Sequence record: ON528738
Strand: one strand, 5' to 3'
From: Shigella phage ESh28
Length of the DNA stretch: 64,000 nucleotides
Below, in pieces: positions 3,029 through 45,015 of this stretch. Each line of letters starts with the position of its first letter. Within the stretch, counting starts at the first letter, position 1. The notes beneath the pieces were generated by a model. That model did no database searches, was not told the DNA's origin, and saw nothing but the letters and a program-made list of their open reading frames with translations. Both the position numbers and the translations under genes were made by a program.

Positions 3029-3180
3029 GCAAATAAGAAATATGGGAACAAACTGGACCTCATGATTCTGTGAGGGATTCCCGCCAACCTGTAATAAGGT
3101 CGAGCCCAAGTGCGGTAATGGGTAAATACAGAAATGGACAATTCATGCGCCACGGAATGGCCCAAATTTAGAGAGAAGAA

Positions 3181-3720
3181 ATGAGAACATTTTTAACTGG
3201 TCCTTATCTATCCCTGATGAATGCTTTTACACACCATTCTGATGCTAGAGTAGAAGAAATTTGTAAAAACGATTATATCCCACCATTTGAAGACTTACTT
3301 AAGCAGTATTGCACACTTCGACTAGATGGTGGACGTCAATCCGGTAAATCAACTGCAGTAACTAATTTTGCCGCTAATTGGTTGTATGACGGTGGAACAG
3401 TTATTGTTCTTTCTAATACTTCAGCTTACGCTAAAATTTCCGCAGATAATATTAAAAAGGAATTTTCGCGTTATTCTAATGATGATATTCGATTCCGCTT
3501 ATTTACTGATTCTGTGCGCAGTTTTATTGGTAATAAAGGAAGCAAGTTCAGAGGTTTATCGCTTTCGCGAATTTTATATATAATTGATGAGCCTGTCAAA
3601 TCTCCTGATATGGATAAGATTTATAGTGTCCATATTGACACTGTACACTGCTGCTGTAATATTAAATGTTGCATTGGTGGTATTACTCGTCCACAGTTTT
3701 TCGTAATCGGAATGCAATGA
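3181..3720 (+). CDS. hypothetical protein with P-loop-like GGRQSGKST motif
   Basis: ORF with Walker A-like motif; weak SD; ATGA overlap with next ORF. Confidence 0.4.
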   Translation: MRTFLTGPYLSLMNAFTHHSDARVEEICKNDYIPPFEDLLKQYCTLRLDGGRQSGKSTAVTNFAANWLYDGGTVIVLSNTSAYAKISADNIKKEFSRYSNDDIRFRLFTDSVRSFIGNKGSKFRGLSLSRILYIIDEPVKSPDMDKIYSVHIDTVHCCCNIKCCIGGITRPQFFVIGMQ

Positions 3721-4046
3721 TGACAGACACTCAGCTTTTCGAATATCTTTATTTTTCGCCAAAAACTATTAAAAATAAATTGGTGAATCATTTTGAAATT
3801 TTGGCAAATAACAACGTCTTGAGCGAATTTTATCCTAAGCAATACAAATTACAAAAAGGCGTATTCAAAGGATGCAGAGTTTTGTGTACTGCTCCTAATG
3901 CACGGTTAATGAATAAAATTCCATATTTTACCATGGAATTTATTGATGGTCCTTTTAAAGGACTAATCACACAGAGTTTAATGGCATATGATTCTGAGCC
4001 ATTTTTAATTAAAGAACAATCTTGGATAAATTTATTTTCTAATTGA
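3717..4046 (+). CDS. hypothetical protein
   Basis: ATG (MMTDTQ...) overlapping stop of previous gene; start chosen inside tracked ORF 3666-4046. Confidence 0.4.
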
Positions 4047-4053
4047 GGTTTAT

Positions 4054-4416
4054 ATGAAAGCATATCAAATTCTTGAAGGCACACACAAAGGTACTATTTA
4101 TTTTGAAGATGGTATTCAAGCACGAATTATTGTCTCTAAAACCTTTAAAGAGGACTCTTTTGTAGACCCAGAAATTTTCTACGGTTTGCATTCCCGTGAA
4201 ATTGAAATTGAAACACAACCTACAGTTAAAATTGAAGGTGGTCAACACCTGAACGTTAACGTTCTGCGTCGTGAAACTCTGGAAGATGCAGTTAAGCATC
4301 CGGAAAAATATCCGCAGCTGACCATCCGTGTATCCGGTTATGCAGTTCGCTTTAACTCTCTGACTCCGGAACAGCAGCGCGACGTTATCGCTCGTACCTT
4401 CACCGAGAGCTTGTAA
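4054..4416 (+). CDS. autonomous glycyl radical cofactor, GrcA/YfiD-like (T4 Y06I-type)
   Basis: C-terminal half near-identical to the E. coli YfiD glycyl radical domain ([14 protein letters not shown]...[29 protein letters not shown]); host-like GC-rich codons. Confidence 0.85.
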
Positions 4417-4637
4417 TGGCAAAGATAATTATTGAAGGTTCTGAAGATGTGCTAAATGCTTTCGCCGAGTGGTTTAGTAATTCAGGCGAACAGCAATTTA
4501 ATGAAGCATGGAACATGGGTGATATTAATGGAATTTATCCTACGACAGAAATTTCTGTTCAGGGATATGGCATTCATGAACCTATTCGTTTAGTTGAATA
4601 TGATTTATGCACTGGTGAGGAAGTCAAATATGATTGA
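4416..4637 (+). CDS. hypothetical small protein
   Basis: ORF with ATGG overlap to GrcA-like stop. Confidence 0.45.
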   Translation: MAKIIIEGSEDVLNAFAEWFSNSGEQQFNEAWNMGDINGIYPTTEISVQGYGIHEPIRLVEYDLCTGEEVKYD

Positions 4638-22005: not shown

Positions 22006-22479
22006 ATGTTATTGACTGGCAAATTATATAAAGAAGAAAAACAGAAATTTTATGATGCACAAAACGGTAAATGCTTAATTTGCCAACGAGAACTAAATCC
22101 TGATGTTCAAGCTAATCACCTCGACCATGACCATGAATTAAATGGACCAAAAGCAGGAAAGGTACGTGGATTGCTTTGTAATCTCTGCAATGCCGCAGAA
22201 GGTCAAATGAAACATAAATTTAATCGTTCTGGCTTAAAGGGGCAAGGTGTTGATTATCTTGAATGGTTAGAAAATTTACTTACTTATTTAAAATCCGATT
22301 ACACCCAAAATAATATTCACCCTAACTTTGTTGGAGATAAATCAAAGGAATTTTCTCGTTTAGGAAAAGAGGAAATGATGGCCGAGATGCTTCAAAGAGG
22401 ATTTGAATATAATGAATCTGACACCAAAACACAATTAATAGCTTCATTTAAGAAGCAGCTTAGAAAGAGTTTAAAATGA
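22006..22479 (+). CDS. 49: endonuclease VII (Holliday junction resolvase)
   Basis: 157 aa; zinc-binding CLICQ ... HLDHDHELNGPKAGKVRGLLCNLCN motif as in T4 gp49. Confidence 0.9.
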   Translation: MLLTGKLYKEEKQKFYDAQNGKCLICQRELNPDVQANHLDHDHELNGPKAGKVRGLLCNLCNAAEGQMKHKFNRSGLKGQGVDYLEWLENLLTYLKSDYTQNNIHPNFVGDKSKEFSRLGKEEMMAEMLQRGFEYNESDTKTQLIASFKKQLRKSLK

Positions 22480-24293
22480 CAATTGAAAAAGAAATTGAAG
22501 GATTGATTCATAAAACTAATAAAGACCTTTTGAACGAGAATGCTAATAAAGATTCTCGTGTTTTTCCAACTCAACGGGACCTTATGGCTGGTATTGTGTC
22601 TAAACACATTGCCAAAAATATGGTCCCGTCTTTTATTATGAAAGCGCATGAAAGCGGAATTATTCATTTCCATGATATTGATTATTCCCCTGCTCTTCCA
22701 TTTACTAATTGTTGTTTAGTAGATTTAAAAGGAATGCTTGAAAACGGATTTAAGCTAGGTAATGCACAGATTGAAACTCCTAAATCAATTGGAGTTGCTA
22801 CTGCAATTATGGCACAAATTACTGCGCAAGTTGCTTCTCACCAATACGGCGGAACGACTTTTGCGAATGTAGATAAAGTACTTTCTCCTTATGTTAAACG
22901 CACCTATGCAAAACATATTGAGGATGCAGAAAAATGGCAAATCGCTGATGCGTTGAATTATGCTCAATCTAAAACAGAAAAAGATGTATACGATGCATTC
23001 CAAGCTTATGAATATGAAGTAAATACTCTCTTTAGTTCAAACGGACAGACTCCTTTTGTAACAATTACATTTGGTACGGGAACTGACTGGACTGAACGAA
23101 TGATTCAGAAAGCAATTCTGAAAAATCGTATTAAAGGTCTTGGTCGTGATGGGATAACTCCTATTTTCCCTAAGCTTGTTATGTTCGTCGAAGAAGGTGT
23201 TAATCTTTATAAAGACGATCCGAACTATGATATTAAGCAACTTGCTCTAGAGTGCGCAAGTAAAAGAATGTATCCTGATATTATTTCAGCTAAGAACAAT
23301 AAAGCTATCACTGGCTCATCTATTCCTGTTTCTCCAATGGGTTGTCGTAGTTTCTTGAGCGTGTGGAAAGATTCGACTGGTAATGAAATTCTTGATGGAC
23401 GTAATAATCTTGGCGTTGTAACACTGAATCTTCCTCGTATTGCGTTAGATTCTTATATTGGAACACAGTTCAATGAACAGAAATTTATCGAATTGTTCAA
23501 TGAACGAATGGATTTATGTTTTGAAGCTTTGATGTGTAGAATTAGTTCCTTAAAAGGAGTTAAAGCGACTGTTGCTCCTATTCTTTACCAAGAAGGTGCA
23601 TTTGGGGTTCGTCTTAAACCTGATGACGATATAATTGAGTTATTTAAAAACGGTAGAAGTTCAGTGTCTCTAGGATACATTGGTATTCACGAATTGAATA
23701 TTCTTGTCGGTCGTGATATTGGACAGGAAATTTTAACTAAAATGAATGCTCGTCTTAAACGGTGGACTGAAAGAACCGGATTTGCTTTTAGCTTGTATTC
23801 TACTCCTGCTGAAAACCTTTGTTATCGCTTCTGTAAACTTGATACAGAAAAATACGGAAGTGTAAAGGATGTTACTGATAAAGGATGGTACACTAATAGT
23901 TTCCATGTTTCAGTAGAAGAAAATATTACTCCGTTTGAAAAGATTTCTCGTGAAGCGCCATATCATTTCATTGCGACAGGTGGTCACATTTCTTATGTTG
24001 AACTTCCTGATATGAAAAATAATCTAAAAGGTCTTGAGGCCGTATGGGATTATGCTGCACAGCATTTAGATTATTTTGGTGTTAACATGCCAGTAGATAA
24101 GTGTTTTACATGCGGAAGTACCCATGAAATGACTCCTACTGAAAACGGATTTGTTTGTTCTATTTGTGGAGAAACTGATCCTAAAAAGATGAATACCATA
24201 AGAAGAACATGTGGTTATTTGGGAAATCCGAACGAGCGCGGATTTAATCTAGGTAAAAATAAAGAAATCATGCATAGGGTTAAACACCAATGA
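22476..24293 (+). CDS. nrdD: anaerobic ribonucleoside-triphosphate reductase NrdD
   Basis: 605 aa contiguous; C-terminal glycyl radical motif RRTCGYLG; Cys-rich zinc site. Confidence 0.95.
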   Translation: MTIEKEIEGLIHKTNKDLLNENANKDSRVFPTQRDLMAGIVSKHIAKNMVPSFIMKAHESGIIHFHDIDYSPALPFTNCCLVDLKGMLENGFKLGNAQIETPKSIGVATAIMAQITAQVASHQYGGTTFANVDKVLSPYVKRTYAKHIEDAEKWQIADALNYAQSKTEKDVYDAFQAYEYEVNTLFSSNGQTPFVTITFGTGTDWTERMIQKAILKNRIKGLGRDGITPIFPKLVMFVEEGVNLYKDDPNYDIKQLALECASKRMYPDIISAKNNKAITGSSIPVSPMGCRSFLSVWKDSTGNEILDGRNNLGVVTLNLPRIALDSYIGTQFNEQKFIELFNERMDLCFEALMCRISSLKGVKATVAPILYQEGAFGVRLKPDDDIIELFKNGRSSVSLGYIGIHELNILVGRDIGQEILTKMNARLKRWTERTGFAFSLYSTPAENLCYRFCKLDTEKYGSVKDVTDKGWYTNSFHVSVEENITPFEKISREAPYHFIATGGHISYVELPDMKNNLKGLEAVWDYAAQHLDYFGVNMPVDKCFTCGSTHEMTPTENGFVCSICGETDPKKMNTIRRTCGYLGNPNERGFNLGKNKEIMHRVKHQ

Positions 24294-24760
24294 ATTATGA
24301 TAGATTTTATCCTTGTGATTTTGTGAATGGCCCTGGTTGCAGGGTCGTTCTTTTCGTCACAGGTTGTTTGCATAAATGCGAAGGGTGTTATAATAAATCA
24401 ACATGGAATGCTAGAAATGGTATTCCATTCACTGGAGAGACACTAGAACAATTAATTGAATGTTTGAATAATGATTATATAGAAGGATTAACTATAACCG
24501 GAGGAGACCCTCTCTATCCTGACAATCGAGATGTTATTCATTGCATTGTTCAAACAGTAAAAAATCTTTATCCCAATAAAAGCATTTGGTTGTGGACAGG
24601 ATATAAGTTTGAAGATATTAAACAACTAGAAATGCTTAAATATGTTGATGTTATTATTGATGGGAAGTATGAGAAAAATCTTCCGACTAAAAAGCTGTGG
24701 CGAGGATCAGATAATCAGCGACTTTGGTCAAATACCGATGGGGTGTGGAAACATGATTAA
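24290..24760 (+). CDS. nrdG: anaerobic RNR activating radical-SAM protein NrdG
   Basis: 156 aa; CxxxCxxC radical SAM cluster motif (CLHKCEGC). Confidence 0.9.
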   Translation: MNYDRFYPCDFVNGPGCRVVLFVTGCLHKCEGCYNKSTWNARNGIPFTGETLEQLIECLNNDYIEGLTITGGDPLYPDNRDVIHCIVQTVKNLYPNKSIWLWTGYKFEDIKQLEMLKYVDVIIDGKYEKNLPTKKLWRGSDNQRLWSNTDGVWKHD

Positions 24761-43587: not shown

Positions 43588-45015
43588 GTGGTAGAAATTA
43601 TTCTTTCTCATCTCATATTTGATCAAGCTTATTTTTCAAAAGTTTGGCCATATATGGATTCAGAATATTTTGAAAGTGGTCCAGCTAAAAATACGTTCAA
43701 ATTAATTAAATCTCATGTTAATGAGTATCATAGCGTTCCATCTATTAATGCGTTAAATGTTGCATTAGAAAATAGTTCATTTACTGAAACGGAATATTCT
43801 GGTGTAAAAACACTTATTTCAAAACTAGCCGATTCTCCAGAAGACCACAGCTGGTTAATAAAAGAAACAGAAAAATATGTTCAGCAAAGGGCGATGTTTA
43901 ATGCTACGTCTAAAATAATCGAAATTCAAACTAATGCTGAGCTTCCTCCGGAAAAACGAAATAAGAAAATGCCGGATGTTGGTGCTATTCCTGACATCAT
44001 GCGTCAAGCATTATCAATTTCATTTGATAGCTACGTTGGTCATGATTGGATGGATGACTACGAAGCACGCTGGCTATCTTATATGAATAAAGCTCGTAAG
44101 GTTCCATTTAAACTCAGAATTCTAAACAAAATTACTAAAGGCGGAGCTGAGACTGGAACACTGAACGTTTTAATGGCTGGTGTTAACGTTGGTAAATCAT
44201 TAGGACTTTGTTCATTAGCAGCAGATTATTTGCAGCTTGGTCATAACGTTCTTTATATCTCCATGGAAATGGCAGAAGAAGTCTGTGCTAAGCGTATTGA
44301 TGCTAATATGCTTGATGTTTCTCTTGATGACATTGATGATGGGCATATTTCTTACGCTGAGTATAAAGGAAAAATGGAAAAATGGCGCGAGAAATCTACT
44401 CTCGGTCGTTTAATCGTTAAACAGTATCCTACTGGTGGAGCAGACGCTAATACATTCAGGTCTCTCTTGAACGAATTGAAGCTCAAAAAGAATTTTGTTC
44501 CAACAATCATTATTGTCGACTATCTAGGTATTTGTAAATCTTGCCGCATTAGAGTTTATTCAGAAAATAGTTACACAACTGTTAAAGCTATTGCAGAGGA
44601 ATTGCGTGCTCTGGCTGTTGAAACCGAAACTGTTCTTTGGACTGCAGCACAGGTCGGTAAACAAGCTTGGGACTCTTCTGATGTTAACATGAGCGATATT
44701 GCAGAATCTGCCGGTCTTCCAGCAACGGCTGATTTTATGCTTGCGGTCATTGAAACCGAGGAGCTAGCAGCTGCTGAACAACAACTTATTAAGCAAATCA
44801 AATCACGATATGGCGATAAGAATAAGTGGAATAAGTTTTTGATGGGTGTTCAAAAGGGAAATCAGAAATGGGTAGAAATTGAACAAGATTCTACTCCAAC
44901 CGAAGTGAGTGAAGTAGCAGGTTCACAACAGATTCAGGCTGAACAGAATCGCTATCAAAGAAACGAATCAGCTCGAGCTCAGTTAGATGCTTTGGCAAAT
45001 GAATTAAAATTTTAG
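43588..45015 (+). CDS. 41: replicative helicase gp41 (DnaB-like)
   Basis: 475 aa; Walker A GVNVGKSLG; GTG start; near-identical to T4 gp41. Confidence 0.95.
   Translation: MVEIILSHLIFDQAYFSKVWPYMDSEYFESGPAKNTFKLIKSHVNEYHSVPSINALNVALENSSFTETEYSGVKTLISKLADSPEDHSWLIKETEKYVQQRAMFNATSKIIEIQTNAELPPEKRNKKMPDVGAIPDIMRQALSISFDSYVGHDWMDDYEARWLSYMNKARKVPFKLRILNKITKGGAETGTLNVLMAGVNVGKSLGLCSLAADYLQLGHNVLYISMEMAEEVCAKRIDANMLDVSLDDIDDGHISYAEYKGKMEKWREKSTLGRLIVKQYPTGGADANTFRSLLNELKLKKNFVPTIIIVDYLGICKSCRIRVYSENSYTTVKAIAEELRALAVETETVLWTAAQVGKQAWDSSDVNMSDIAESAGLPATADFMLAVIETEELAAAEQQLIKQIKSRYGDKNKWNKFLMGVQKGNQKWVEIEQDSTPTEVSEVAGSQQIQAEQNRYQRNESARAQLDALANELKF

Follow-up and report, generated by a model that had tools for sequence, protein, structure and literature searches.

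The spare-part gene vs.6 of Shigella phage ESh28 is probably an old phage gene whose radical-domain half was overwritten by host grcA DNA

When half of a phage gene is, letter for letter, host DNA, has the phage taken over the gene or only that half? The question is raised by vs.6, a small gene in a 64,000-nucleotide stretch of DNA from Shigella phage ESh28 (sequence record ON528738), the whole of which was analyzed and is referred to here as the window. The window is a segment of a T4-group (Tequatrovirus) phage genome, and vs.6 encodes the counterpart of T4 Y06I and of the E. coli glycyl radical cofactor GrcA (YfiD), a 'spare part' of pyruvate formate-lyase (PFL). In an earlier note on this DNA, made from the letters alone, the gene was described as host-derived. 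We now consider it likely that vs.6 is an old phage homolog of grcA, the radical-domain half of which has been overwritten at least twice by gene conversion from host to phage.

The 3' part of vs.6 is set apart by its match to the host. From position 4232 to the end of the gene at 4416, 181 of 185 nucleotides (97.8%) are identical to E. coli grcA. When the full window was compared by megablast with 5,426 complete E. coli genomes, this tract was the only part to find a match, in grcA and, more weakly, in the paralog pflB (80.6% identity to the pflB DNA), and no other host-like DNA was found in the 64 kb. The earlier note had contrasted a host origin with an identity no higher than the phage-wide background; since the background host identity of the window is nil, the 97.8-100% identity in the patch stands clear of it. 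The match is also specific with respect to the donor. Over a core of 165 nucleotides (nt), the window, T4 and one Mosigvirus each agree with E. coli grcA at all 165 positions, while the same core agrees at 152 with Citrobacter, at 142-144 with Klebsiella and at 136 with Salmonella, and at no more than 149 with the other genera compared. Judged by these counts, the donor is specifically Escherichia. As a separate observation, one E. coli genome contained 21 places matching window positions 1-25000, against a median of 2 (grcA and pflB).

Composition divides the gene as well. The G+C content (GC) is 33.3% in the 5' half and 50.3% in the 3' half, and the GC at third codon positions (GC3) rises from 20 to 47.5%; for the 71 background open reading frames (ORFs) of the window, GC3 is 24.8 ± 4.8%, with a maximum of 42%. 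The tract is the GC maximum of the entire window (z = 3.8) and uses the codons CTG, CCG, ATC and TCC, which are rare in the phage (8, 13, 16 and 5%, respectively). If codons were chosen by the phage's own synonymous usage, the probability that all of the roughly 55 identical codons would match E. coli is about 1e-28. The GC-richer 3' stretch with E. coli-like codons that had been noticed earlier is thus borne out by the GC3 profile.

The remainder of the gene is of phage type. An alignment of the 5' half with GrcA is possible only from about residue 20-22 onward, where 14 of 40 residues (~35%) agree, and no nucleotide similarity of this half to E. coli grcA was detected, the blastn and megablast matches beginning at 4232. 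Its N-terminus (MKAYQ...) is common to vs.6 and to homologs in T5-like, Aeromonas, Vibrio and jumbo phages, and the 5' half thus comes from an old line of phage grcA homologs. At the other end, positions 4401-4416 depart from E. coli at four synonymous sites (TTC ACC GAG AGC TTG in place of TTT ACT GAA AGC CTG). The host derivation claimed in the earlier note therefore holds for 169-185 nt at the 3' side, but not for the 5' half or the last ~16 nt. Similarly, of the near identity to GrcA over some 70 C-terminal residues, the RVSGY motif and a block of 60 identical residues out of 60 (residues 61-120, equal to GrcA 68-127 and including Gly95) are confirmed, but the block is 60 residues long and further upstream the agreement falls to about 14 of 40. 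On this evidence vs.6 is a mosaic in which only a sharply bounded 169-185 nt appear host-derived, and the gene as a whole does not look like a recent import.

The mix of E. coli-type and phage-type bases in the last five codons varies among E. coli phages, and all four gametes are found at three pairs of sites, a pattern that is suggestive, and only suggestive, of recombination. In nearly all T-even phages examined, GAG (GAA in E. coli) lies eight bases upstream of the vs.5 ATG and may act as a weak Shine-Dalgarno-like element for vs.5; T4 has GAA. Another variant was observed in Escherichia phage OES_C-2 (329-685), which lacks 6 nt of the N-terminal half without a change of frame (EIEIE to EIE). 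Its 3' 185 nt are one base off E. coli grcA (99.5%) and end with the E. coli-type AGC CTG, which suggests that its conversion tract extends further in the 3' direction than that of the window.

Is the identity of the tract recent, or has it been preserved by selection? Between Tequatrovirus and Mosigvirus, nucleotide identity is 58-74% for vs.7, vs.5 and vs.4, 88-90% for the 5' half of vs.6, 98-99.4% for the tract and 71% for the last 14 nt of the gene. Synonymous divergence (dS) between the two genera is 0.27-0.41 in the 5' half and 0.024 in the tract (0.31 versus 0.024, Fisher p = 0.002). By these distances, the tract is younger than its flanks and than the split of the phage genera. A single ancient acquisition of grcA by a T-even ancestor, with the 3' half held identical to the host ever since by selection on protein and codon usage and without later recombination, would draw on the extreme conservation of the domain at the protein level across hosts and phages, and on the standing of vs.6 as an old conserved gene of T4-like phages. 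Synonymous sites, however, do diverge. For the same codons, the dS of host grcA genes relative to E. coli is 0.43 in Citrobacter, 0.78 in Klebsiella and 1.15 in Salmonella (range 0.43-1.4), and it is no lower in the tract codons than in the 5' halves of the host genes. As host grcA genes are free to diverge at synonymous sites, constraint cannot explain the nucleotide identity. The same freedom is seen in phages, since E. coli phage RB43 keeps 58 of 60 domain residues with only 150 of 183 nt identical and RB16-like contigs keep all 60 with 152 of 183. Extreme synonymous constraint was rejected on the strength of the host dS and of these two cases, in which the domain is kept at 82-83% nucleotide identity. 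A single ancient acquisition would also leave unexplained the sharp drop at 4401-4416 within the same conserved protein segment, and it sits badly with patch codons that are rare in the phage and with an identity specific to each phage's own host genus (E. coli or Klebsiella). We regard it as very improbable.

The patch is widespread. In 638 phage records, identity to the 3' end of E. coli grcA is 95% or more, and among the matches listed the match starts at grcA position 199-202; IMG/VR contigs from the same phage groups present the same tract pattern. This distribution also bears on whether the patch could be an artefact of host contamination or chimeric assembly, for which only its host identity speaks. 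The same in-frame junctions recur in hundreds of independently sequenced phages, T4 included, and in uncultivated IMG/VR contigs, and phage-specific synonymous changes occur at the 3' end of the very same reading frame, so that the chance of an artefact is in our view negligible. Some of the variation in the tract resembles host alleles. The Gln codon at 4245 is polymorphic in E. coli (CAA/CAG), with CAG in O157:H7 NE122; one IMG/VR Tequatrovirus contig has CAG, i.e., the O157 allele, while the other phages have CAA. In addition, a TCT inside the tract of phage F2 equals an allele of Escherichia sp.

A second phage-host pair displays the same arrangement. The Jiaodavirus tract agrees with Klebsiella grcA at 158-159 of 165 positions, compared to 144-147 with E. 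coli, and the Klebsiella-specific residues LLDAVEH are carried by Jiaodavirus-type phages. Altogether 108 phage records, almost all from Klebsiella phages of ~165 kb, are 95-99% identical to Klebsiella grcA, and among the matches listed they cover grcA positions 199/202 to 369-374, with boundaries similar to those of the E. coli patch. The hallmarks of a conversion tract are therefore found here, namely a sharp discontinuity, an age below that of the flanks, donor-specific states and recurrence in a second phage-host pair. Two of these records stand out. The Klebsiella-type patch is present, with 96.5% identity, in a phage labelled as infecting Salmonella (PSE-D1, 166.6 kb), which hints that the patch records the natural host. 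In Klebsiella phage vB_Kpn_AM_K4 it is 95.3% identical with the same boundaries; this record, of 288.7 kb, may stem from another type of phage or from a chimeric assembly.

For other hosts the phage records gave little. No Salmonella grcA patch reached 95% or even exceeded 90% identity, and no Enterobacter grcA patch reached 95%, with one at 90-95%. The homologs of T5-like, Aeromonas, Vibrio and jumbo phages are 70-85% identical to any host and show no fresh tract. An apparent Yersinia-type tract (167 of 183) in the 19-kb contig IMGVR_UViG_2706794630_000006 was rejected, as the grcA of this contig is complete and of host type (MITGIQITKA...); the contig probably represents bacterial DNA or the flank of a prophage and not a vs.6 homolog. 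Several short IMG/VR contigs encode PflB-type C-termini (MNREMLLDAME...QSM) with high GC3, and these genes look like pflB/tdcE rather than GrcA-type genes.

How might host DNA replace a defined part of a phage gene? Marker rescue in T4 draws on homologous DNA resident in the cell, and homologies of tens of base pairs suffice. During infection, the chromosomal grcA of the host would overwrite positions 4232-4400 by homologous recombination (gene conversion), T4-type recombination copying the short resident homologous DNA into phage genomes. The donors would be E. coli for Tequatrovirus and Mosigvirus and, independently, Klebsiella for Jiaodavirus, and the phage-type 5' half and the 3' end overlapping vs.5 would stay untouched. 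If conversion is confined to pre-existing homology, the 5' boundary would always fall where the conserved domain begins, and the 3' end, which would also have to serve the overlapping vs.5 start, would keep its phage type. Once installed, the patch would offer perfect homology for more host-to-phage or phage-to-phage conversion and would thus remain host-like, every E. coli infection exposing vs.6 to ~170 nt of perfect chromosomal homology. We lean slightly toward going one step further and regarding vs.6 as a natural 'marker-rescue' locus, at which T-even phages repeatedly copy ~170 nt of the grcA of their current host, so that the two evolve in concert and the patch records the recent natural host.

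Several observations weigh against this picture of conversion, above all against its repetition. Most of the variants found in the tract are singletons, as would be expected of ordinary mutation following a single event. It is conceivable, though we hold it clearly the less probable course, that a single T-even phage recently captured the E. coli patch once and that the patch then spread from phage to phage among the E. coli T-even genera in mixed infections. The patch would in that case be the only island of high homology between the genera, and, because their flanks are only 68-73% identical, exchange between phages would likewise be confined to it; the 5' junction shared by the phage records, among the matches listed, would follow as well. 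On the other hand, each genus has retained its own last 14 nt (GAG AGT CTA in Mosigvirus, ...TTG in Tequatrovirus), each lineage matches E. coli at 165 of 165 positions, and the Klebsiella-type patch of Jiaodavirus requires at least one separate host capture. A single capture would alter the number of host captures and not the mechanism. As for the four-gamete sites at the 3' end, they lie 1-10 nt apart and could reflect recurrent mutation. In addition, E. coli phage RB43, Enterobacter phages and Salmonella phages are without a fresh host patch, so conversion is not automatic. Finally, the conversion itself is something we infer from patterns in sequences. With these points taken into account, we still find host-to-phage gene conversion the probable origin of the radical-domain half.

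The protein encoded by vs.6 has the features of a stand-alone GrcA/YfiD-type cofactor. At 120 aa it falls in the size class of about 14 kDa that consists mainly of the C-terminal radical domain; the Pfam family Gly_radical (PF01228) matches residues 60-101 (E = 2e-18), and the radical-site motif RVSGYAV with the conserved Gly95 is present. The best NCBIfam model is TIGR04365 'spare_glycyl' (IPR011140; E = 8e-46, 155.4 bits). The solved structures matched are those of YfiD/GrcA (6OWR, a 60-residue chain with 60/60 identity) and PFL. An AlphaFold2 model for which host GrcA sequences served as the alignment was of moderate quality (predicted local distance difference test, pLDDT, 68; predicted template modeling score, pTM, 0.40). 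It predicts four beta-strands in residues 2-51 (pLDDT about 80), followed by a low-confidence linker (54-70) and then the radical domain. In a Foldseek search with this model, only YfiD (100% identity over 60 columns) and PFL were significant, both through the C-terminal domain, while KOW-like and ribosomal matches to the N-terminal sheet were weak and below significance.

With respect to function, E. coli YfiD and T4 Y06I are described as the only two validated PFL 'spare part' proteins in PMC8683613, which cites Wagner et al. (2001). According to the same paper, PFL-activating enzyme places a glycyl radical on YfiD and Y06I, and both bind oxygen-cleaved PFL and restore its activity in vitro. 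In YfiD, the structured radical domain comprises residues 61-127, and residues 1-60 are disordered, yet required for cleaved PFL to be bound and for activation to be efficient (PMC8683613); the block of vs.6 that is identical between phage and host coincides with this structured domain. The order predicted for the N-terminal half of the vs.6 protein (4054-4210, residues 1-52) contrasts with the disorder reported for that half of free E. coli YfiD, and may reflect a bound state.

By analogy, host PflA (PFL-activating enzyme, PFL-AE) would install the radical on Gly95 of vs.6 protein made during infection. The protein would then dock on host PFL cleaved by oxygen at Gly734 and replace the lost C-terminal radical domain, restoring the conversion of pyruvate to acetyl-CoA and formate. 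After the phage has shut off host expression, the cell could not renew its own GrcA, and the phage would supply this consumable part itself, so that microaerobic or anaerobic hosts could continue to make ATP and formate by fermentation. The E. coli-type class III ribonucleotide reductase uses formate as its reductant. The earlier note had suggested support for anaerobic metabolism, possibly by repair of oxygen-damaged PFL, and the PFL rescue reported for T4 Y06I supports this suggestion.

A different partner has also been considered. PMC1524935 lists vs.6 among the few uncharacterized ORFs conserved in all six T4-like genomes compared and proposes, from the Pfam domain in common, that it takes part in nucleotide metabolism, while PMC8683613 speculates that GrcA-type proteins could repair other glycyl radical enzymes. 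The vs.6 protein might accordingly serve the phage's own NrdD, host TdcE or a PFL-like enzyme, or modulate host PFL as a competitor, and the conserved phage-specific N-terminal half could give it a different partner preference. Given that its radical domain is identical to that of GrcA and 80-83% identical to the C-terminus of PflB, and that rescue of cleaved PFL has been reported for Y06I, we consider this unlikely. A spare part for the phage NrdD in particular was rejected, since the best BLASTP alignment of vs.6 with the NrdD of the window had E = 5.8 and left the radical site unaligned; rescue of TdcE or of another PFL-like enzyme is conceivable.

Repair of host PFL by vs.6 has its own counterweights. 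It is extended to this phage from in vitro data on T4 Y06I, 118 of whose 120 residues are identical, as cited in PMC8683613. To our knowledge, no in vivo phenotype of a vs.6 mutant has been described. In the laboratory phage RB55 (401-750), 13 nt of vs.6 are deleted, so that the reading frame is lost immediately ahead of the radical glycine (...RVSALTL*); a coding sequence (CDS) is not annotated at the place of vs.6, and the gene is hence apparently dispensable in that phage. The TIGR04365 score narrowly misses the curated equivalog cut-off of 170 bits, owing to the divergent N-terminal half. Lastly, the connection by which formate supply would link vs.6 to the phage-encoded NrdD/NrdG and to anaerobic deoxynucleotide supply is one that we infer. 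We nevertheless favor repair of host PFL as the function of vs.6.

The gene itself is well known. Phage AR1 annotates vs.6 as 'autonomous glycyl radical cofactor' between vs.7 and vs.5, many other records label its homologs 'autonomous glycyl radical cofactor GrcA', and the gene is covered to 80% or more by 862 phage records. Within the T4-group phages vs.6 is 97-99% identical at the nucleotide level, and the surrounding 3 kb are 97-98% identical to phages such as vB_Eco_T-01, Sf22 and AR1. The protein belongs to the ortholog group PHROG 1209 (phrog_1209 matched over 1-120 of 121, E = 5e-63). The T4 counterpart Y06I to which the earlier note had pointed is a direct ortholog in the same position, and the gene can accordingly be identified as vs.6/Y06I of T4, with a biochemical function that is already known. 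The coordinates of vs.6, its parts and the other genes considered are collected in Table 1.

Table 1. Positions in the window of vs.6, of its parts and of the other genes considered.
Feature	Position	Strand	Basis or remark
vs.6 (Y06I) CDS, 120 aa	4054..4416	+	ORF (ATG start, TAA stop); Pfam, PHROG 1209 and NCBIfam matches; same position in phage AR1
5' phage-type half, AT-rich; residues 1-59 and first base of codon 60	4054..4231	+	Composition; weak GrcA similarity
Putative host-derived conversion tract, encoding the structured glycyl radical domain	4232..4400	+	169 nt exactly equal to E. coli grcA positions 200-368
GGT codon of Gly95, predicted glycyl radical site (RVSGY)	4336..4338	+	Equals GrcA Gly102 and PflB Gly734 by alignment to GrcA/PFL
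3' terminal mosaic, last five codons and stop	4401..4416	+	TAA overlaps ATG of vs.5
vs.7, upstream neighbor, function unknown	3666..4046	+	Synteny with AR1 vs.7
vs.5-position ORF, 73 aa, function unknown	4416..4637	+	AR1 synteny; phrog_1986
nrdD, anaerobic class III glycyl radical ribonucleotide reductase	22476..24293	+	NCBIfam NF006732, 907.8 bits, above cut-off
nrdG, NrdD activating enzyme	24290..24760	+	NCBIfam TIGR02491, 198.6 bits, above cut-off

The true start of vs.7 is probably internal, as the phrog_2049 match begins at residue 18, and the stop of vs.6 overlaps the start of the vs.5-position ORF (TAATG). The anaerobic reductase genes that had been called nearby are both encoded in the window, but 18 kb downstream of vs.6 and not adjacent to it. 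A promoter and terminator scan around vs.6 yielded no more promoter matches than shuffled sequence. Among 171-nt stretches of the window, the one ranking second in GC (50.3%) was found at 44576-44794, inside a 475-aa ORF (43588-45015) that we take to be the gp41 replicative helicase; it had no match in the 5,426 E. coli genomes by megablast and so is not another host patch. A 150-nt intergenic stretch between an Ip4-like ORF and vs.8 (3029-3180) is also relatively GC-rich (up to 44%), and AR1 annotates a longer vs.8 starting within it. No transfer RNA (tRNA), Rfam match or RNA structure signal (z = 0.36) was detected in this stretch, and tRNA and Rfam scans of the whole window were without matches.

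As a gene, vs.6/Y06I is ordinary, being annotated in hundreds of T4-like genomes and having a published activity. In the searchable literature, coverage of which is incomplete and gives no proof of novelty, we found no paper on its nucleotide-level host identity or on conversion, and the conversion pattern would be a modest addition to a known gene. Still, the comparison of an E. coli and a Klebsiella patch offers a clean and quantifiable example of what appears to be host-to-phage gene conversion in a virulent phage. If the marker-rescue interpretation is true, it would document a continuing transfer of chromosomal host genes, by homology, into a phage that is obligately lytic and degrades the DNA of its host, and the extent of the homology alone would set the tract boundaries. 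Marked host grcA alleles could then serve as a simple system for measuring gene flow from chromosome to lytic phage, and the patch could be used as a sequence marker of the recent natural host of a T-even phage. Caution would also be advisable with auxiliary metabolic genes, where partial host-like codon usage may reflect recurrent overwriting rather than recent acquisition of a whole gene.

Among known systems, T4 Y06I is the closest. It occupies the same vs.7 - vs.6 - vs.5 place, has 120 aa and is identical at 118 of 120 residues and 97.5% of nucleotides, and the tract identical to E. coli is present in T4 vs.6 too, where the exact run extends to 178 nt. The two differ by two substitutions in the N-terminal half (A47S, P54T) and by the base mix of the last five codons. 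E. coli GrcA, for which a nuclear magnetic resonance structure exists (6OWR), shares the radical domain (60/60 residues, 169 nt identical) and can be aligned from about residue 20, and the same activation by PflA and docking on cleaved PflB would be expected of the vs.6 protein. The N-terminal half of the latter, however, is seven residues shorter, only ~35% identical where alignable, and of a phage-specific lineage (MKAYQ...). The C-terminal radical domain of PflB/TdcE is the same domain with the [13 protein letters not shown] motif, at 80-83% identity over 53-63 residues, but in PflB it sits in an enzyme of 760 aa, whereas the vs.6 protein corresponds to the detachable radical module alone.

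Two further systems resemble vs.6 in the way its sequence may have arisen. Cyanophage psbA is a phage metabolic gene that is mosaic, with host-like segments attributed to recombination between host and phage copies. Compared to psbA, which is another gene in another host and phage group, the tract of vs.6 is short (~170 nt), has fixed boundaries apparently set by homology, and occurs in a phage that is virulent and breaks down the DNA of its host. T4 marker rescue and insertion-substitution recombination are laboratory systems with plasmid-borne phage DNA. The route proposed for vs.6 would be the same, short resident homology being copied to the progeny, but the donor would be a natural chromosomal gene of the host.

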